33,548 nucleotides of DNA, taken from NCBI GenBank assembly GCA_034722955.1, contig JAYEOM010000103.1, positions 1-33,548 of the forward strand, in the 5' to 3' direction. Source of the stretch: Campylobacterota bacterium (GTDB lineage: Bacteria; Campylobacterota; Campylobacteria; Campylobacterales; Sulfurovaceae). This document shows positions 1 through 33,548 of this stretch, in pieces; position 1 is the first letter of the stretch, and each line of letters starts with the position of its first letter. A program made the position numbers and the translations under genes. The notes under the pieces were generated by a model. The model did not search any database, was not told the DNA's origin, and was given only the letters and a program-made list of their open reading frames with translations.

Positions 1-250
1 TAAACACACAAATAGCTTTATGAGGTTTTTCATAGACAAGGCAATCGTTTGAAGGACTAGCCTTAGCTAATGCGAAAACGATTAACGCCGTATATGGGAA
101 ACCTCATAAAGCCCGCAGGGAAGCCACTAAGAGGGCAATCTTCACAAAATATAATTCTCCAATTAGCTATGGCTAGCCCTATGAATTATATTTTGCAAAT
201 CTTACCCTCTTGGTGGCTTCTATTTGTGTGTTTATCTCCTTGGGGTAGCC
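1..250. mobile_element. MITE-like structured repeat: truncated left end (1-15), hairpin module A (15-112), hairpin module B (120-220, opposite orientation), complete 31-bp right end (220-250)
   Basis: 1-15 is the reverse complement of 220-234. 127-250 matches the reverse complement of 33425-33548 with 4 substitutions. Flanked by TTA at 251-253. Mobility is inferred from dispersed copies; no transposase seen. Confidence 0.75.
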
Positions 251-2062
251 TTACTCCCCAAACAGATAGACCACATCAGGCCAAAACAGCACAATCATAA
301 GGGCTGTAACTTGCAGAAGTATAAAAGGGATAACCCCTCTATATATCTCTCCTGTAGTTACCTTGTCACCAGCTGCTCCCTTAAGATAGAAGAGAGCAAA
401 ACCAAAGGGGGGCGTGAGAAAAGATGCTTGTAGATTCATCGCGATCAATACTGCGAACCAGATAGGATCGATCCCCAAAGTATGAACTATAGGTACCAAT
501 ATAGGCACCACTACAAATGCTATCTCGATAAAATCAATAAAAAATCCAAGCAGAAAGATAACTAGCATACTTATGATGATAAAAGTCCACTGACTGCTCA
601 TATCACCAGAGAAAAACTCCAGTGCCATATCTCCACCGCCTAACTCGTTGAATACCAGTGAGAATGCTGTAGCACCTATCAATATCATAAATATCATAGC
701 TGTAAGTTTCACCGTCTCTATAGCGGCATATCGTATCAAGTCAAAGGATAGAGTCCCATTGCTCCATGCCAAAAGTGATGCACCTATGGCACCTATGGCT
801 GCTGACTCTGTAGGAGAGGCGATACCTGCAAAGATAGACCCCAGTACTATAGCTATCAAAATCAGAGGTGGGACGATAGCTTTTAGTGCCTCTTTTGCTG
901 TTTGCGAATATGGCTGATCACTCTTGATAGATGGTGCCACCTCTCTATCTGCTAGTGCTCGTATAAAGATATATAGGATATATAGTATGATCAGAAGCAG
1001 ACCCGGTACTACTGCTGCTCTAAAGAGATCTCCTACACTCAAATGCATCTGATCACCTAGTACGATAAGTACAATCGAAGGAGGAATGATCTGCCCAAGA
1101 GTACCACTCGCTGCGATAGAACCACTAGCCAATGATGGCGAATAGCCATGCTTTAGCATCAGTGGCAGTGCTATCAGACTCATCATCACCACTGATGCCC
1201 CTACGATACCGGTACTAGCTGCCAATACAGCACCGACTAGAACTACAGAGATCGCCAATCCACCGCGAATAGATCCAAATAGTCTACCCATAGAGATCAA
1301 TAGCCCCTCTGCCATTTTGGATCTCTCAAGGATCAGTCCCATAAGTATAAAGAGTGGTATAGCCATCAGTGTTATGTTACCCATAATGCCATAGATGCGA
1401 TAGGGCAGCATCTCAAAGACCACAAGCCCAACTTCATCAGAGATCAATGCAAACAGCAGTGCCACACCTGCAAAAACAAAAGCAACCTGAAAGCCGGAGA
1501 GCAGCAGTACCAGAGAGAGTACAAACATGAGATAGACAGGATCGATCCAGAAAACTACATCAAAGTAGACCCCATAAAAAGCAAACAGAGATAGCAGTAG
1601 AGAGAGTATAAGCGGCAGAACAACCGCACGAGGGGACTCCAGAGAGTGATATGATTTTAGTATCTCACTAACTGCCTGCATAACAAGCAATCCAAATGAT
1701 ACAAAAATCATCCCTTTGATCAGGTATCTATGGGTCAAACCACCCGGATCACTGGAGATCTCCTGCTGTAGATAACTCTGCATCATCAGATCATAAGCAT
1801 CACTCATTAGCAATGCAGAGAAAGGTATCACCAAAAAGAGCATAGAGAAGATTTGGATGATAGCACGAGTCTGATTGGAGTATCTCTCATAAAAGATATC
1901 AACACGCACATGTTTGTTGTGTTTCAATGCATAAGTGATACCTAGCAAAAATACCATATCATACAGATGCCACTCCACCTCCTGAAGTCCTATAGAACCT
2001 GCCGAAAAGAGATAACGCATAATAGCATCATAAGTGACCAAAAGAGCCAAAACTACTACCAA
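251..2062 (-). CDS. TRAP transporter fused small+large permease (DctQ-DctM); true 5' end probably further upstream (~2116)
   Basis: N-terminal DctQ motifs (QEVEWHL, HVRVDIFY, SSDPGGL) followed by DctM motifs (GTLGQIIPPS, ASPTESAA, QASFLTPPFGFALFYL). The frame is open upstream to 2128. Confidence 0.9.
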   Translation of the reverse strand: MVVVLALLVTYDAIMRYLFSAGSIGLQEVEWHLYDMVFLLGITYALKHNKHVRVDIFYERYSNQTRAIIQIFSMLFLVIPFSALLMSDAYDLMMQSYLQQEISSDPGGLTHRYLIKGMIFVSFGLLVMQAVSEILKSYHSLESPRAVVLPLILSLLLSLFAFYGVYFDVVFWIDPVYLMFVLSLVLLLSGFQVAFVFAGVALLFALISDEVGLVVFEMLPYRIYGIMGNITLMAIPLFILMGLILERSKMAEGLLISMGRLFGSIRGGLAISVVLVGAVLAASTGIVGASVVMMSLIALPLMLKHGYSPSLASGSIAASGTLGQIIPPSIVLIVLGDQMHLSVGDLFRAAVVPGLLLIILYILYIFIRALADREVAPSIKSDQPYSQTAKEALKAIVPPLILIAIVLGSIFAGIASPTESAAIGAIGASLLAWSNGTLSFDLIRYAAIETVKLTAMIFMILIGATAFSLVFNELGGGDMALEFFSGDMSSQWTFIIISMLVIFLLGFFIDFIEIAFVVVPILVPIVHTLGIDPIWFAVLIAMNLQASFLTPPFGFALFYLKGAAGDKVTTGEIYRGVIPFILLQVTALMIVLFWPDVVYLFGE

Positions 2063-2128
2063 TAGAGATGCTAAAAACCCTGCATATTTCGATACTCTAT
2101 CTAAATAATAACTGATACTGTACTCTCC

Positions 2129-2620
2129 TTACCAATCCTCTAGCCAGCTAACTTCATATCTCCAAGGAAACATTCTCTTTTCACTGACTATTTTCGGTGG
2201 TGTACCTGTAACTGTCACCTCCATACCGGTTCTAGCCCATGCCCACATCTTTTGTGCAAAACCTCTCTGCATCCGTATACAACCATGTGATGCCGGATAG
2301 TTGGGAACCGGACCCAAGTGCATAGCGATCCCGTCCCAAGTCAAACGCAGCAGATAATCCATCTTGGCACCGCCATCAGGTTTGGGCCAGAGGTTAGATG
2401 CATGTCTCTTCTTTTTCTCAAGAATATAAAATGTACCTGTAGGTGTACGGCGACCATATGTTCCAGTAGAGATACGACCACTAAATACAACTTTTCCATC
2501 TTCATAAGCGTAGGCTATCTGCTCATCCAGATCTACAGCTATACTCTTTTTGGCTTCTATCTGTGTAGATACTAAAAGGAGCATTAAAAATACAAATATT
2601 ACTCTAACTCTATTTTTCAT
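2129..2620 (-). CDS. L,D-transpeptidase (YkuD/ErfK family)
   Basis: Signal peptide after ATG at 2620; ISTG..TP.G.F, GIAMH and catalytic ASHGCIRM motifs. Confidence 0.88.
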   Translation of the reverse strand: MKNRVRVIFVFLMLLLVSTQIEAKKSIAVDLDEQIAYAYEDGKVVFSGRISTGTYGRRTPTGTFYILEKKKRHASNLWPKPDGGAKMDYLLRLTWDGIAMHLGPVPNYPASHGCIRMQRGFAQKMWAWARTGMEVTVTGTPPKIVSEKRMFPWRYEVSWLEDW

Positions 2621-2660
2621 GCTATTATTATAACTAAAAATAGAGTGAAAAAGATAATAA

Positions 2661-3632
2661 ATGAAAAAATTTATAAATGAAACTATGTGGGATATTCTCA
2701 TCTGGCTTGAAGCAGAGGTAGAGGATATAGATCCATCTGACAAAATCCTCTTTCAGATACCAAATCCTGATTTGGATACTACCAAAAGATATCATAGCTG
2801 GAGATCCTGGAGTGATCTAGCCACCCTGCTCTATTGTCGTATGATGACTCCACATATCATCAACGATAGAGAGGTCATAGTATCGTTTCAAAAACTTGAT
2901 CACTCTGACTCTTTTCACACAGCAGAAACATCTGACCATAGAGAAAAATATGGTACTCTATCCTCTTTCTCCCTGATAGAGAAAAACGAAGAGCCTGCTT
3001 TTATCTTTGCATTTGTCAAAGCACTAAAACAGGTCAAGATAGAAGAGAGGCAAACCATCTTAGATCTAGGGGTCAACAGCGGTGATGAGTTTGAGGTGAT
3101 CACAAGTATCCTGCCCAAAAAGAGCTATAAGAGTATGAGCCTGATCGGTATCGACCACAGCAGATCAGCCATAGAGAGAGCCAAAATGCGTTTCCCTCAA
3201 GCCAATATCTCTCTCTACTGTCATGACATCAACCATCTCAAAACTCTGTCACTCCCAAAAGCAGACCTCATCATATCTATAGGCACTCTCCAAAGCCCCA
3301 GCATCGAGTTTAAGCCTCTCTTTATGTCACTCATCCAAGATCACCTCACCCCTAGTGGAGCCATCATTCTGGGCTTCCCCAACTGTCGATGGATAGATGG
3401 AGAGATGATATATGGAGCCAAAGCCCCCAACTACAACTTCTCTGAAATGTCACTGGTGATAAAAGATATCTATTTTTGCAAAAAATATCTACAGCAACAC
3501 AGGTTTAGGGTGACAATCACGGGGAAAGAGTATCTATTTTTGACTGCTACAAAGATTAGGATAAGGCTACCCCAAGGAAATAATTACTGTCACACAACAC
3601 CCTCTTTCAGCAAACTCTATTGCATAATTTGA
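2661..3632 (+). CDS. Class I SAM-dependent methyltransferase, substrate unknown
   Basis: ILDLGVNSG motif I and IGIDHS motif II. The last ~23 codons start inside a repeat remnant. Confidence 0.75.
   Translation: MKKFINETMWDILIWLEAEVEDIDPSDKILFQIPNPDLDTTKRYHSWRSWSDLATLLYCRMMTPHIINDREVIVSFQKLDHSDSFHTAETSDHREKYGTLSSFSLIEKNEEPAFIFAFVKALKQVKIEERQTILDLGVNSGDEFEVITSILPKKSYKSMSLIGIDHSRSAIERAKMRFPQANISLYCHDINHLKTLSLPKADLIISIGTLQSPSIEFKPLFMSLIQDHLTPSGAIILGFPNCRWIDGEMIYGAKAPNYNFSEMSLVIKDIYFCKKYLQQHRFRVTITGKEYLFLTATKIRIRLPQGNNYCHTTPSFSKLYCII
3565..3597 (+). repeat. Degenerate solo end of the TWA-GGCTACCCCAAGG repeat
   Basis: TAA then GGCTACCCCAAGGAAATAA (18/19 match to consensus), a short insertion, then CACACAA. 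Confidence 0.8.
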
Positions 3633-3657
3633 GATAATACGGCTAAAAAAGATCTAT

Positions 3658-4182
3658 ATGAAGATAGTAGTGGCGATTACGGGTGCTAGTGGGGTTGGAT
3701 TGGCACAGAAGTTTATTGATCTCCTTCCTGGCGGTATAAGTGTACATGTTGTGGCATCTGACCATGCCAATATCGTAGCTATATATGAAGAGAAGAGCCA
3801 TATAACCATCCACCACAATGATGATATAGCAGCCTCTATCGCATCAGGTTCGTTTCAGGTAGATGCTACAGTAGTTGTCCCTTGCAGTATGAATACACTA
3901 GCCAAGATAGCACATGGTATCGCTGACAACCTAGCATCTCGTGTTGCGGCAGTAGCACTCAAGGAGCAGAAGAGACTTCTGTTGGCGCCTAGAGAGATGC
4001 CCTTTTCTGCTATAGCTTTGGAAAATATGCATAAACTATCTATGCTAGGTGTAGTTATCGCACCACCGGTGATGGGGTACTACTCGGATAGTGACTCCCT
4101 AGAGGATATGGAGTCTTTTATCATCGGTAAATGGTATGATACTTTGGGCATAGAGCATAGCTTATATAGAAGATGGAATTGA
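3658..4182 (+). CDS. ubiX: Flavin prenyltransferase UbiX
   Basis: VAITGASG, ASIASGS, PCSMNTLAKIA.G.ADNL and PREMP motifs. Confidence 0.93.
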   Translation: MKIVVAITGASGVGLAQKFIDLLPGGISVHVVASDHANIVAIYEEKSHITIHHNDDIAASIASGSFQVDATVVVPCSMNTLAKIAHGIADNLASRVAAVALKEQKRLLLAPREMPFSAIALENMHKLSMLGVVIAPPVMGYYSDSDSLEDMESFIIGKWYDTLGIEHSLYRRWN

Positions 4183-22375: not shown

Positions 22376-22406
22376 GGCTACCCCAAGGAGATAAACACAC
22401 AAATAG
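22376..22406 (+). repeat. Complete 31-bp solo end of the repeat
   Basis: TTA then GGCTACCCCAAGGAGATAAACACACAAATAG, identical to 33425-33455. Confidence 0.92.
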
Positions 22407-22409
22407 ACT

Positions 22410-22431
22410 CCGGAGAAGAAGAGTTCTCCGG
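22410..22431 (-). terminator. Hairpin downstream of pckA
   Basis: CCGGAGAA-N6-TTCTCCGG, 25 nt past the pckA stop, followed on the minus strand by AGTCTATTTG. Confidence 0.6.
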
Positions 22432-22456
22432 TATAAGAGGTATTAAGAAAAAGGGA

Positions 22457-31692: not shown

Positions 31693-33420
31693 ATGAATCA
31701 AACAACAGCATTAGATATATTAAGATCAGGAGAGAATGTTTTTATCACAGGGTCAGCCGGGACTGGTAAAACTTATCTCCTCAACCAGTTTATAGAGTAC
31801 CTCAAAGAGAGGAGAGTCACCCCTGCTATTGTAGCTCCTACCGGAATAGCGGCTTCTCACTTGAGAGGTCAGACCATTCACTCCTACTTCTCATTGGGTA
31901 TTCGTGACACTATAGACGATGGCTATATAGAGTTTTTGATGGAGAAGAGATATCTAGCAAAGAGATTTTCCAAATTGAAAATCCTCATCATCGATGAAGT
32001 CTCTATGATCTCTCCAGAGATATTCTCATCTATGGATCAGATCCTCAGAGCATTCAAAGGTACTACCCAGCCATTTGGAGGTATCCAAGTTGTACTCTCA
32101 GGAGATTTTTTCCAACTACCTCCTGTCTCCAAAGTTTACAAAGAGAAACGATTTGCTTGGCAATCCCCTGTATGGAGAGAACTCAATCTAAAAACCTCTT
32201 ATCTTGAGAAAAAGTTTAGACAAGTTGATGATAAACTTATCACTGTTTTAGATGAGATACGAAGCGGTCAAGTCTCAAAGATATCTCATGATATATTCAA
32301 CTCCAGATACCATAAAGTGTTAAATATTGACTTTACGCCCACCAAACTCTATACACACAATATCGATGTCGATAGGATCAACGATCAAGAGTTGGCAAAC
32401 TTACCCGGTAGACCTATCTTCTACACCTACGAGTCAAAAGGGAGTCAAAAAAATATCGCTAAGATTTTCAAATCATCACTGGTTTTGGAAGAGTTGACTC
32501 TCAAAAAAGATGCCGTAGTTCTATTTATCAAGAACAGTCCCGAAAAAGGCTATATAAATGGAACAACGGGTATCGTCACAGGATTCGATCCAAATGACAA
32601 TATGCCCATAGTAAAGATCTCATCAGGGAGGCGTATCAAGCTCGAACAGGAGGATTGGTCTATCGAAAATGATAGTGGAACTATCATCGCCACAATCTCC
32701 CAAGTCCCCTTGAGACTGGCATGGGCTATCACCATCCACAAATCCCAAGGTATGACACTCGATGCAGCAGAGATAGACCTCACCAAGACCTTTGAAGCTG
32801 GACAGGGGTATGTAGCTCTCTCTCGTATCAAAACTATCGAAGGGTTGAGACTCATGGGGTTGAATGATATGGCATTGAGAGTTGACCCACTGATCCTGCA
32901 TATAGATGACCGTATCAAGATGGCTTCCCAGAGAGCTGCTGACGAGATAGTGAAGATGAGCAAAAGATCTCTTGAGATACTATCTACAGATCACATAGAG
33001 AGTTTGGGAGGCATCACCGACAAGATTCAGATCGAAGCTGAGAGAGAGAACTTAAAAAATGGGAAAGTATCAGTAGAGAGCTACCGCACTCCAACACAGA
33101 TAAAAACAAAACATCTCATCGAAAAGTCAAAAGATATTTTAGAGTTGGCAAAGATGAGAGGTTTGAGCAAATCAACGATCATCCAACATTTAGGTATCTT
33201 GAGAGAGGCGGATGAGAGTTTGGATTTGGAAAAGTTCAAGCCAGATGAAGAGATCTTCAGAGCGGTGCGAGATGAGGTAGTGAAGTTAAAGTCAAAGAGT
33301 AGTGCAGAGGATTTCAGTGATGATGGTCGCTTGAGGCTGAAACCTATATTTGACGCTATGGATGGCGAAGTTAGCTATGATGACATACGGATCTCTTTGC
33401 TGTTTCTAAAAGAGGTATAG
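31693..33420 (+). CDS. Pif1/RecD-like SF1B helicase with C-terminal HTH
   Basis: TGSAGTGKT, IIDEVSM, PFGG..V.LSGDFFQLPPV and PLRLAWAITIHKSQG motifs; C-terminal ELAKMRGLSKSTIIQHL and LKPIFD segments. Confidence 0.9.
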   Translation: MNQTTALDILRSGENVFITGSAGTGKTYLLNQFIEYLKERRVTPAIVAPTGIAASHLRGQTIHSYFSLGIRDTIDDGYIEFLMEKRYLAKRFSKLKILIIDEVSMISPEIFSSMDQILRAFKGTTQPFGGIQVVLSGDFFQLPPVSKVYKEKRFAWQSPVWRELNLKTSYLEKKFRQVDDKLITVLDEIRSGQVSKISHDIFNSRYHKVLNIDFTPTKLYTHNIDVDRINDQELANLPGRPIFYTYESKGSQKNIAKIFKSSLVLEELTLKKDAVVLFIKNSPEKGYINGTTGIVTGFDPNDNMPIVKISSGRRIKLEQEDWSIENDSGTIIATISQVPLRLAWAITIHKSQGMTLDAAEIDLTKTFEAGQGYVALSRIKTIEGLRLMGLNDMALRVDPLILHIDDRIKMASQRAADEIVKMSKRSLEILSTDHIESLGGITDKIQIEAERENLKNGKVSVESYRTPTQIKTKHLIEKSKDILELAKMRGLSKSTIIQHLGILREADESLDLEKFKPDEEIFRAVRDEVVKLKSKSSAEDFSDDGRLRLKPIFDAMDGEVSYDDIRISLLFLKEV

Positions 33421-33424
33421 TTAA

Positions 33425-33548
33425 GGCTACCCCAAGGAGATAAACACACAAATAGAAGTCACCAAGAGGGTAAGATTTGCAAAATATAATTCGTAGGACT
33501 AGCCATAGCTAATTGGAGAATTATATTTTGTGAAGATTGCCCTCTTGG
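33425..33548 (+). mobile_element. Second long copy of the structured repeat (31-bp end + hairpin module B), truncated by the window end
   Basis: Follows TAA at 33422-33424; 120/124 nt identical to the reverse complement of 127-250. Confidence 0.8.

Follow-up and report, generated by a model that had tools for sequence, protein, structure and literature searches.

A repeat with two inward-facing hairpins and a shared apex, very probably a non-autonomous transposable element, at both ends of a Campylobacterota contig

A truncated repeat at both ends of the window

We asked what the two hairpins of about 100 nt are that open the window, the whole 33,548-nt stretch of Campylobacterota DNA analysed here, and why their arms are unrelated whereas they share a 25-nt apex. 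A first-pass annotation had read each hairpin as a constant leader, a variable duplex and a constant apex, resembling a protein-recognised scaffold with exchangeable cargo rather than a decayed transposon. Re-reading the sequence confirmed the coordinates and letters of both modules, whose arms start on the final G of a 31-nt end. The repeat finder placed the arms of module A at 15-37/90-112 (23 nt, 87% complementary), a helix that the fold lengthens to 15-50/76-112, and those of module B at 120-157/183-220 (38 nt, 84% complementary, with 25 nt between them). The same program found both modules enclosed by a perfect 15-nt inverted repeat (1-15/220-234), of which 1-15 corresponds to positions 17-31 of the 31-nt end that is complete at 220-250 and 33425-33455. 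Positions 1-250 are a single copy of a repeat of about 265-315 bp (full copies measure 266-316 bp), truncated by the contig start. A third apex at 33493-33517 had been quoted correctly and agrees by eye with apex A at 21 of 25 positions. It had been counted as a further module, but it sits between module B arms and therefore belongs to another copy of the repeat, which the contig end truncates. Positions 33425-33548 are indeed 100% identical over 124 nt to the C29 reference element. The features are as follows.

1..15, + strand: inner 15 nt of the left terminal inverted repeat, its outer 16 nt lost at the contig start
15..112, + strand (sense): hairpin module A (type A), from covariance model R1, fold and alignment
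51..75, + strand: apex of module A, reading GAAGGACTAGCCTTAGCTAATGCGA
112..120, no strand assigned: central mini-hairpin CCCGCAGGG joining both modules, read from the sequence
120..220, - strand (sense): hairpin module B (type B), from its arms, covariance model R1, fold and the type-B alignment
158..182, - strand: apex of module B, reading ATAGGGCTAGCCATAGCTAATTGGA on the minus strand
220..250, - strand: right terminal inverted repeat, complete, 31 nt, reading GGCTACCCCAAGGAGATAAACACACAAATAG on the minus strand
251..253, no strand assigned: TTA flank of the element, which is the TAA stop codon of ORF 251..2062 on the minus strand
22376..22406, + strand: solo 31-nt end preceded by TTA, a 31-mer match in the genome
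33422..33424, no strand assigned: TAA flank of the second copy, 1 nt past the TAG stop codon of ORF 31693..33420
33425..33455, + strand: terminal inverted repeat of the second copy, a 31-mer match in the genome
33455..33548, + strand (sense): module B of the second copy, truncated by the contig end, apex at 33493-33517

The layout of the element is a 31-bp terminal inverted repeat (TIR), hairpin A, the CCCNNNGGG mini-hairpin in the middle, hairpin B on the other strand and a second 31-bp TIR, so that one hairpin of about 100 nt lies beside each end and both face inward. CCCNNNGGG occupies the central position in nearly all subfamilies. Module A carries the internal loops CAAGGCA and TAACGCCG..ATGGG, whereas those of module B are GGTAAGAT / AGATTGCC and include a U·G wobble as well as tandem G·A pairs. 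Apex A consists of a 3-bp helix, a C/A mismatch, a 4-bp helix and the 4-nt loop CTTA (pairs at alignment columns 48-67); it is a short form, and most other A copies of the genome have about 27 nt extra after GCTAAT. Covariance model R1 matches the window at 10-121 (+, E=1.5e-23), 111-225 (-, E=1.8e-6) and 33462-33548 (+, E=4.3e-5). The solo end at 22376..22406 is followed by unrelated sequence with a short CCGGAGAA...TTCTCCGG hairpin.

Both 1-250 and 33425-33548 very probably represent a non-autonomous transposable element (MITE). The repeat is non-coding, stays below the size of about 600 bp usual for MITEs, has TIRs, and is scattered through the genome in numerous copies, some of them deletion derivatives. 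There are 78 genomic matches to the 31-nt end at up to 6 substitutions, and pieces of the element lie dispersed singly at about 75 loci. TAA (65) or TTA (57) precedes 122 of 157 tips, and the six full-length copies all have identical 3-nt flanks. Among end pairs within 420 bp, flanks match in 8 of 17, against a chance expectation of 7.2 and with about 4 of the 17 pairings judged spurious; five end pairs read TTA...TAA, so that a putative target duplication could be 2 or 3 bp long. At locus C4, a full copy is inserted in a 52-bp micro-element with TTA on both sides; C78 shows the left junction of C4, and the micro-element is uninterrupted at C98 and C89. Derivatives are truncated, micro (52-bp) or chimeric, and the apex, which lies symmetrically relative to each end, is a hotspot of DNA-level rearrangement, with the 27-nt insert, truncations and B-left/A-right chimeras. 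In the subfamily of this genome, GGACTAGCC, which makes up the 5' half of the apex, is similar to GGGGTAGCC at the outer tip of the end, and it is exactly there that truncated copies stop. The TIRs, the TTA/TAA flanks, the roughly 75 loci, the nested insertions and the deletion derivatives thus refute the initial preference for something other than a transposon, and the supposed constant leader is the TIR, which differs between subfamilies. No empty site was recovered from relatives, in which just one flank was conserved or synteny was lacking, nor did any metagenome contig skip the element when four DNA runs of one study were compared with a full copy. In these four runs, element words reached about 50-200 times the depth of the flanks, and one opposite-strand joint was seen. 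The repeats also break assemblies, many copies lying at contig ends of this 140-contig genome.

Folding of the hairpins and spread of the apex

The fold of the modules is far from that of shuffled sequence (z from -7.9 to -10.5, none of 200 shuffles being equally good). Module A reaches -43.6 kcal/mol (z=-8.7) against -39.0 on the opposite strand, and module B -53.1 kcal/mol on the minus strand against -44.9 on the plus strand, so that the sense strand folds better by 4.6 and 8.2 kcal/mol. Folded entire as single-stranded DNA, the element forms an end stem with two arms (-83.6 kcal/mol, z=-14). The motif AGGRCTAGCCWTAGCTAAT occurs three times in the window against 0.05 expected, and no shuffle out of 100 contained three or more. 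The organisation first proposed for two modules (end, variable duplex, constant apex) proved to be general, with the hairpin fold seen in 223 of 247 distinct apex-bearing units and 53 arm types. The anticipated covariation was also found. In type A, 25 of 32 pairs show compensatory changes among 26 sequences, and with 120 distinct model matches double changes occur in 32/32 pairs, 94.2% of cells are paired (34-53% with partners slid) and the covariation score is 0.766 against 0.193 shuffled, a value reached in 0 of 500 shuffles. The type B alignment has 41 pairs with compensatory changes in 34, and by eye the apex helix covaries in distant members (CTGGCC..GCCG, CTAGTT..AACTA, CTACCC..GGTA, GGAGCTAC..GTAGCTTC). 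In an inverted repeat, covariation of this kind is also expected from maintenance of a palindrome at the DNA level.

On the strand reading inward from the nearest end, 338 G·U pairs stand against 25 A·C pairs, and 142 against 22 once three conserved wobble pairs are removed, counts to be read knowing that alignment A2 was fitted to the model, which itself prefers G·U to A·C. Because of this excess, we consider it quite probable that selection favours folding of the hairpins as single-stranded nucleic acid, in this inward-reading strand; G·T and G·A pairs cannot separate DNA from RNA. The arms carry two recurrent conserved internal-loop motifs, types A and B, and the wobble and G·A positions are conserved across subfamilies. 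What is kept in the superfamily is therefore the apex stem-loop (GGACTAGCC-NTA-GCTAAT) with two kinds of internal loop, and what varies is the sequence of ends and stems.

The apex motif extends across very different marine bacteria, to metagenome-assembled genomes labelled Campylobacterota, Gammaproteobacteria, Saprospiraceae, Actinomarina and Fibrobacteraceae, with at least 53 arm types. One and the same apex is found on unrelated end families (GGCTACC..., CCGCACC..., GACTTCTTGC..., GTACTCCTTC..., GAGACCTCTG..., ACCTGAGTTCG...), other subfamilies having inverted ends of their own of 20-30 nt, and end sequences are the least conserved part of the element. In genome G118, each of the three 16S rRNA genes is interrupted by a family member as an intervening sequence, an observation relevant to amplicon work.

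No known family accounts for the element. Rfam gave no match in the window at the gathering score, and at E<=5 eight loci from five lineages matched microRNA-precursor and other hairpin models only, all below threshold. BLAST of the window copy gave no match among annotated plasmid and phage records, and viral contigs held a single apex match. The first-pass annotation had suspected an undescribed unit, and where it could have failed we found many arm types and covariation, and no Rfam, plasmid or phage match. The apex strings were absent from the papers of our literature search, and searches of main texts on MITEs and structured RNA, on intervening sequences and Epsilonproteobacteria, and on MITEs and Campylobacterota genera brought up no account of the element. 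Likewise, this hairpin family is not described in the accessible part of the Thiomargarita MITE paper (PMC4853749) or in the reference list of the Nitratiruptor paper (PMC7476070).

A candidate mobilising enzyme and possible roles of the hairpins

We then looked for an enzyme acting together with the element, as the first-pass annotation had advised. No transposase lies beside the element at 138 loci from genomes and metagenomes, and Y1 HUH genes, which are candidates only, are present in the genome. The 138 loci showed no recurrent neighbouring or internal ORF either, and no autonomous partner with the same ends was found at these loci, in the window's genome, in closed genome G039 or in gamma genome G245. 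MITEs are often without an autonomous partner, and therefore its absence does not exclude membership. The window's genome has no DDE_3, DDE_Tnp_4, DUF4096 or rve match, and its DDE_Tnp_1 matches are of the IS1634 type only; among 13 other carriers, DDE_3 exceeds the cut-off in one and DDE_Tnp_1 in three, and among five carriers IS5_3 exceeds its cut-off in none, with one weak match in G000. Several apparent partners were rejected. The end pair C1:100-2802, 2.7 kb apart, encloses MBOAT-like and other genes and no transposase; the solo ends of G039 contain another small repeat; the ends of the IS1634-family element on contig C119 are not related to those of the repeat; and PDDEXK_2, RT, IS66-fragment and Cas1 genes on short contigs have no link to the element.

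The Y1 HUH genes, with eight matches in the window's genome, are of the TIRYT / TnpA_REP subclass 2.1 type; the Y1 protein of contig C67 has 262 aa. Three of the matches are no further than about 100 nt from an element end, as is a Y1 N-terminal stretch read by eye on C14. We regard them as no more than candidates for the enzyme of the element. Against them, they have different ends (GGGGTCAGGTAACAA...) and a repeat family of their own (112 matches), which are the more obvious Y1 substrates. Moreover, they are absent from 6 of 20 carrier genomes, including G065 (15 matches, 100% completeness), and present in 36 of 141 non-carriers, and the association of Y1 with the element is confounded by phylogeny.

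The explanation that we prefer, although we hold it only tentatively, is that of a MITE whose hairpins are selected as a single strand, recognised by shape and handled as single-stranded DNA. From the sequences, fixed tips and inner loops on changing stems and ends suggest that some factor reads the folded shape. In single-stranded form, the two ends would pair into a stem from which the hairpins would protrude as arms, giving a Y shape, and an enzyme reading this shape with the conserved apex and loops might cut at the base of the stem, beside T(W)A, on the model of HUH endonucleases that read hairpinned substrates. Such a shape-reading enzyme would explain why the ends need only pair, whereas the tips must keep their sequence. 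TIRs with a short T(W)A duplication are, however, the textbook signature of DDE transposases, which work on double-stranded DNA (IS630/Tc1, IS5/PIF-Harbinger), and IS200/IS605 makes no target duplication; these features therefore count against a HUH enzyme.

The strand that matters could also be RNA. An ordinary, currently absent transposase would then move the MITE, and the hairpins would be kept for their action in transcripts, where the sense hairpin might serve as a 3'-end stabiliser, a processing site (e.g. for RNase III) or a transcription insulator, and the apex and loops would bind a conserved RNA-binding factor, copies harmless or useful to neighbouring genes being those that survive. 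We consider this the main rival, though a doubtful one. Many copies begin 0-50 nt past a stop codon, both window copies touching one, and incoming mRNA would therefore transcribe the sense hairpin first. Loci are enriched between convergent genes: of 49 that could be classified, 17 (35%) have this position, compared with 12% for intergenic gaps overall, whereas just 6 are flanked by divergent genes and 3 fall within ORFs. An element end points at the 3' end of a gene in 28 cases and at a 5' end in 13. The excess of G·U over A·C, the tandem G·A pairs and the purine-rich conserved internal loops are typical of structured RNAs, and the G118 member must be transcribed with its 16S rRNA and then tolerated or removed. 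Nevertheless, most bacterial MITEs and REPs are found near gene 3' ends, as a result of the TAA/TTA target and purifying selection, and neither the A nor the B end preferentially faces the gene (16:8 versus 12:5). Among the RNA runs listed, none contained window positions 1-4000, a result that speaks neither for nor against transcription. A scan of positions 1-400 found no terminator and one promoter-like site (0.9 expected), and by eye nothing conserved between subfamilies presents the modules as small ORFs, promoters or terminators. It is also hard to see one RNA module being kept by MITEs with unrelated ends, presumably moved by different transposases, in several phyla.

Two further readings were considered. 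According to one, which seems unlikely, this is an ordinary MITE read as double-stranded DNA: the apex and loops would be internal sites for a transposase or a host factor, like IR/DR-type inner repeats or the IHF site of Correia, and the stems would be palindromic for DNA-level reasons. The TIRs, the T(W)A flanks and the symmetric placing of the apex agree with it, as does the likeness of the apex 5' half to the end tip at the point where truncated copies stop. But a double-stranded site gives no reason for G·T to exceed A·C mismatches on one strand, for wobble and G·A positions to be conserved across subfamilies or for compensatory pairing in stems of free sequence, and the ends, expected to be the main binding site, are the least conserved part. 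The other reading, stand-alone small-RNA or guide-like genes with exchangeable cargo arms and no transposon, we judge very improbable. Many arm types on one constant apex and the lack of an Rfam match would suit it, and the scaffold idea of the first-pass annotation survives to the extent that fixed tips and loops on free stems and ends are what shape recognition by a protein would give. The cargo part of that idea fails: the arms pair with each other and hold the conserved loop motifs of types A and B, and are thus not free sequence. Nor does the rest fit, since the element has transposon ends, target-site flanks, nested insertions and deletion derivatives, the promoter signal is at chance, BLAST of the whole C29 reference copy against its own genome returns repeat copies alone, and the window copy has no plasmid or phage match.

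One may speculate further, with rather little confidence, that the hairpin with the tip GGACTAGCC-NTA-GCTAAT and the two loop types, A and B, forms a structured nucleic-acid module that is new, spans phyla and is read as a folded single strand by one conserved factor. In its boldest form, the Y-shaped copies would be the dispersed substrates of a single-strand DNA enzyme, for example the TnpA_REP subclass 2.1 / TIRYT HUH proteins; or else the module would be an RNA motif, an orientation-independent 3'-UTR element. These proteins are widespread and have no known cognate repeats, according to the accessible part of PMC6006769. If the partner is such a HUH enzyme, a large orphan subclass would gain a function, and the single-strand DNA reading would define a class of mobile elements whose ends need only pair and whose identity tag sits at hairpin tips. 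Should its role lie in RNA, the module would be a new cis-regulatory motif, widespread and spread by a transposon. As a rule, bacterial MITEs are classified by their ends and treated as IS debris, and here the pattern is reversed: ends and stems drift, whereas a tip of about 22 nt and two loop motifs are nearly fixed in organisms labelled as five phyla, with strand-specific pairing. This points to a so far unrecognised and very broadly distributed partner, enzyme or RNA-binding factor, for which the element gives a defined, testable ligand of about 100 nt.

Comparison with known systems

Correia (NEMIS/CREE, Neisseria), ERIC, RUP and Nezha are small non-coding repeats with TIRs and a TA-type target duplication, present in tens of copies per genome, mostly adjacent to genes, and able to fold into long hairpins as single strands or in transcripts. 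In the MITE families known so far, it is the end sequence that defines the family, and each is restricted to one genus or family of bacteria. The element described here is likewise a small non-coding TIR repeat with TA-type flanks, found in tens of copies, gene-adjacent and hairpin-forming, but it has two separate inward-facing hairpins, and its internal part is conserved across unrelated ends and several phyla. The properties of these bacterial MITEs are taken in part from the background section of PMC3733652.

A second likeness is to the REP/BIME/REPIN + RAYT and TIRtron + TIRYT systems, dispersed imperfect palindromes on which a Y1 HUH enzyme, encoded elsewhere once or a few times, is believed to act when they form single-stranded hairpins (PMC3733652, PMC6006769, here and below in their accessible parts). 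Like them, our element consists of dispersed imperfect palindromes, mainly after genes, and the genome carries Y1 genes with GGGG[AT][CG]A[CG]-type ends. REPs are 20-40 nt long, carry a GTAG tag and flank the RAYT gene (PMC3733652, PMC6006769); the hairpins here are about 100 nt long and are enclosed by 31-bp inverted repeats that T(W)A flanks, and what flanks the Y1 genes is GGGGTCAGGT... repeats and not these hairpins. Conservation concerns the tip here and the stem base in REPINs, as far as those sources describe them. In TIRtrons, GGGG[AT][CG]A[CG] inverted repeats flank a Y1 gene with a C-terminal HTH (PMC3733652, PMC6006769), a pattern that the end of the hairpin element, with GGGGTAGC on the outward-reading strand, does not fit.

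The GG-initial ends and the TTA/TAA 3-nt flanks of the six full-length copies recall Tourist-like MITEs (PIF/Harbinger) and the IS5 group, whose ends start with GG and which make a 3-bp TTA/TAA target duplication. In contrast, DDE_Tnp_4, IS5-type DDE_Tnp_1, DUF4096 and IS5_3 are lacking in the genome and in most carriers, and we know of no conserved internal structured core in the Tourist, PIF-Harbinger or IS5 families.

Other resemblances concern the mode of recognition. In integron attC sites and the T- or Y-shaped hairpin ends read by HUH Rep proteins (such as parvovirus ITRs), a folded single strand is recognised by its structure and by a few bases that are unpaired or at the tip, and folding is strand-specific. 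The freedom of stem sequence and the strand-specific folding are shared with them, as an analogy of mechanism only; our elements are without cassette arrays, array-like spacing or adjacent replication genes. They differ from CRISPR too, with no direct-repeat family in 1-400 and apex copies that are inverted and dispersed. The CORE-SINEs and V-SINEs of animals are non-autonomous retroposons with differing heads and tails and one conserved central domain of unknown role. The present family shares with them a conserved core within a variable rest, but it consists of bacterial DNA elements with inverted-repeat ends.

Architecture and mobility of the repeat

The hairpins at the edge of the window, which the first-pass annotation had read as a scaffold rather than a decayed transposon, belong to a MITE-like mobile repeat of about 265-315 bp, with inverted ends, TAA or TTA flanks, a nested insertion and deletion derivatives. 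The letters and coordinates given in that annotation for the two modules proved correct on re-reading, and a perfect 15-nt inverted repeat (1-15/220-234) surrounds the pair. The repeat finder returned arms of 38 nt and 84% complementarity for module B (120-157/183-220) and of 23 nt and 87% for module A (15-37/90-112), and both modules folded with z-scores of -7.9 to -10.5 relative to shuffled sequence. The window holds three occurrences of the apex motif (0.05 expected). The third, at 33493-33517, is real but does not mark a third type of module: its arms are those of module B, and it belongs to a second copy of the same repeat.

Copies of the hairpin element in the window, with examples of full copies elsewhere in its genome (G000)
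Window 1-250: element copy 1, lacking its first 16 nt (contig edge)
Window 15-112, + strand: module A, apex at 51-75
Window 120-220, - strand: module B, apex at 158-182, in the same sense as apex A when read on the - strand
Window 22376-22406: solo 31-nt end, matching the end sequence
Window 33425-33548: element copy 2, ended by the contig edge
C29:12995-13286: full copy
C134:2842-3132: full copy

The solo end is preceded by TTA and directly followed by a short GC-rich hairpin (CCGGAGAA...TTCTCCGG), the two together (22376-22440) lying between two minus-strand ORFs.

The window is the entire contig C103 of a 2.5-Mb genome in 140 contigs, in which we counted 43 occurrences of the apex motif at up to 2 mismatches (reversed control, 0) and 78 of the 31-nt end GGCTACCCCAAGGAGATAAACACACAAATAG at up to 6 substitutions. 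Full copies consist of an end, then hairpin A, then CCCGTAGGG, then hairpin B on the opposite strand and finally the inverted end. Merging of BLAST pieces gave 75 loci, of which 11 are no more than 150 nt from a contig end, and in the source metagenome the words of the element reached about 50-200 times the depth of its flanks.

Element tips were preceded by TAA (65) or TTA (57) in 122 of 157 cases. All six full-length copies had an identical triplet on both sides; among 17 end pairs within 420 bp, about 4 of which we judged spurious on our own reading, the triplets matched in 8, against 7.2 expected by chance, and five end pairs read TTA...TAA, the pattern expected from TA duplication in TTAA. 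The putative target duplication would therefore be of either 2 or 3 bp. A 52-bp micro-element, consisting of two ends and a 10-nt loop, is uninterrupted on C98 and C89; on C4 a full copy interrupts it with TTA on both sides, and C78 has the same left junction as this nested insertion. Internal-deletion forms of 105-173 bp are present in G000, and some copies break off precisely at ...GGACTAGCC, with TTA or TAA next. The apex of the G000 subfamily is similar in its 5' half to the outer tip of the end (GGGGTAGCC); truncated copies may therefore have arisen by slippage between these short repeats, or the apex may have served as a pseudo-end. Chimeric modules running from a type B left arm through the apex into a type A right arm (C97:398-561, C100:33151-33317) suggest that modules exchange at the shared apex.

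Strand-specific folding of the modules

The two module types differ in their internal loops. Type A carries 5' CAAGGCA (or CTAGGCG) and 3' TAACGNAG...ATGGG around an inner helix of 7-8 bp, and type B carries 5' GGT(A/G)AGAT and 3' AGATTGCC, two motifs that pair through a conserved U·G and two tandem G·A. A CCCNNNGGG mini-hairpin follows nearly every module. Compensatory changes were found in 25 of 32 predicted pairs of type A (26 sequences) and in 34 of 41 of type B (14 sequences). A covariance model made from the type A alignment matched 38 places in G000 and 129 in 100 collected loci. In an alignment of 120 distinct matches, which had been fitted to the model and contains the model's own source sequences, 94.2% of the cells were standard pairs, against 34-53% when partners were slid by 1-3 columns; double changes occurred in 32 of 32 pairs, and the covariation score was 0.766, compared with 0.193 after shuffling (0 of 500 shuffles as high). 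By eye, the apex helix itself covaries in the more distant members found with the model.

A mere DNA palindrome decaying by mutation would be expected to show G·U and A·C equally. On the strand reading GGACTAGCC, we counted 338 G·U cells and 25 A·C cells, or 142 and 22 when three positions at which G·U is the rule were excluded, a ratio that the G·U preference of the model may somewhat inflate; the type A alignment independent of that fit gave about 77 G·U and 5 A·C by hand count. In the window the sense strands fold better than their complements, by 4.6 kcal/mol for module A and 8.2 kcal/mol for module B. Each sense strand reads inward from the end nearest to its module, so that the two modules lie on opposite strands. 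Folded as single-stranded DNA, a whole copy forms a 31-bp end stem with two hairpin arms (-83.6 kcal/mol, z = -14). Altogether, selection maintains a hairpin fold that is specific to one strand and keeps the bases of the tip and loops fixed.

Some apices are modified. An insert of about 27 nt (TGCCCGYAGGAAATGCCCTTGGGGTRC) follows the GCTAAT of the apex, for example at G000:C29:13082-13108, and also in loci L045 and L057 (genome G003) and in a B module on C56, at the identical point in different arm types and both module types; a different one is found there in locus L171. The insert is an optional extension of the apex or else a very small site-specific insertion. Identical weak model matches with a variant apex (GGACTACTCCCCGTAATTC; E=4.4e-4) at G000:C7:9100-9204 and C75:28060-28164 may represent a further, diverged module type.

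Distribution and candidate enzymes

Of 61 related genomes, 12 have the apex motif at up to 1 mismatch, some of them from other families of the order. Exact-match scans gave at least 121 loci with one genome per species, and a scan of metagenomes at least 120. Among the apex matches listed, the MAG titles of Campylobacterota type were Sulfurovum, Sulfurimonas, Sulfurospirillum, Nitratifractor, Sulfuricurvum and Arcobacteraceae, and the others Gammaproteobacteria (including Thiodiazotropha), Saprospiraceae, Candidatus Actinomarina and Fibrobacteraceae; because lineages are those of the record titles, contamination is possible in single cases. These MAGs often held several copies, each with its own ends and arms. 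We took 247 distinct units that bear the apex and have both flanks in full; 223 of them form hairpins with 20 or more arm pairs, and the variable arms proposed in the first-pass annotation came to 53 types at 75% identity on the shared apex. Subfamily ends are wholly different (GGCTACC..., CCGCACC..., GACTTCTTGC..., GTACTCCTTC..., GAGACCTCTG..., ACCTGAGTTCG...), most being again flanked, by eye, by TA or TTA/TAA. The covariance model was run on 151 genomes sampled evenly over the phylum and matched in 10 of them, none belonging to the two largest families sampled (0/53 and 0/60 genomes). Several closed genomes had matches, up to 17 in G039.

Two further observations come from closed genomes. 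In G118 (loci L192, L201 and L207; C1 at about 1259361, 1533932 and 1941258), a member with its own inverted ends, a type A module and a different apex (GCCTTAGTCATCTAAGGC) forms an intervening sequence inside an apparent 16S rRNA gene (locus positions about 1470-1760), identical in all three copies. In G039, a small repeat at C1:430300-430450 and 2053250-2053400 (L214, L215) has a AGGGCACCTCTAAT end in common with the local hairpin elements; its interior differs from theirs and its centre is CCCGTAGGG.

In the 1.5-3-kb flanks of 138 loci, no ORF family recurred beside the element; the one cluster reaching 6 loci was of response regulators (one member, by eye). In G039 the ends of every pair lie about 270 bp from each other, and at the solo ends inspected there is another small repeat. 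The gamma genome behind locus L097 has 22+22 ends, pairing at 130-350 bp. The transposase profiles DDE_3, DDE_Tnp_4, DUF4096 and rve had no match in G000. IS5_3 was above cut-off in 0 of 5 carriers of the element, DDE_3 in 1 of 13 and DDE_Tnp_1 in 3 of 13. The DDE_Tnp_1 matches of G000 were rejected as partner: they come from an IS1634-family element, whose ends are unrelated, and from a broken copy. At G000:C111:27400-29100 a broken IS1634-like transposase gene holds two copies of an insert of about 16 nt (GAGGTACCCCTTGAGGGT) resembling the CCC..GGG mini-hairpins of the elements. Contig C107 (9608 bp; L061), which carries nif-like genes (NifB-like and homocitrate synthase-like translated sequences), has a 127-bp identical overlap at both ends, within a hairpin module of another arm type; an assembly loop caused by the repeat is a likelier explanation than a plasmid.

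Y1 HUH transposases gave 8 matches in G000, the full ones of about 260 aa with a C-terminal helix-turn-helix.

Y1 loci in G000
C104:2-544
C67:1577-2362
C130:7177-7869
C14:1-105
C1:114491-114769
C132, C111, C68 and C134

The genes of about 260 aa lie between copies of an inverted repeat of their own, GGGGTCAGGTAACAA... (TIRtron/TIRYT type), which fits GGGG[AT][CG]A[CG], given as the motif of 'TIRtrons' in PMC3733652. They are therefore placed in TnpA_REP subclass 2.1, for which PMC6006769 reports no known cognate dispersed repeats. A related repeat of about 75 bp with GGGGTCAGGTGATGCTAA ends has 112 matches in G000 and interrupts one Y1 gene (C68). Three of the 8 Y1 matches are no more than about 100 nt away from an end of the hairpin element, as is a Y1 N-terminal stretch recognised by eye on C14, and on C130 the end of a Y1 unit adjoins a degenerate apex. 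When genomes are compared, Y1 genes and the element are weakly linked: a Y1 match was found in 14 of 20 carriers and in 36 of 141 non-carriers, there are carriers with 15 hits and without any Y1 match, and in the window's family Y1 genes are present with or without the element.

Proposed shape recognition and a possible role in transcripts

Free ends and stems combined with a fixed tip and loops are the opposite of the trace of a sequence-specific DDE transposase, and are the trace that recognition of shape would leave. On these grounds, our preferred reading is that the folded single DNA strand of the element would be handled by a putative structure-reading enzyme. The main rival is a putative role of the sense hairpin in transcripts of neighbouring genes, for which the position of the copies after stop codons speaks, as does the relative inside all three 16S rRNA genes of G118. 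Copies lie mainly downstream of genes, many beginning 0-50 nt past a stop codon; in the window, copy 1 is followed by TTA (251-253), which serves ORF 251..2062 as its stop codon, and copy 2 begins 4 nt past the stop of ORF 31693..33420. Convergent-gene gaps hold 17 of the 49 loci classifiable by a crude ORF call (35%, against 12% of all gaps), with 26 loci in tandem-gene gaps, 6 in divergent-gene gaps and 3 inside ORFs.

The Rfam search suggested in the first-pass annotation found no family for the element, annotated plasmid and phage records gave no match, and no paper describing it was found in a limited collection of main texts. Repeats of the MITE kind are already known; as far as these searches show, what is undescribed is a structured core shared across phyla, with inward-facing, strand-specific modules.
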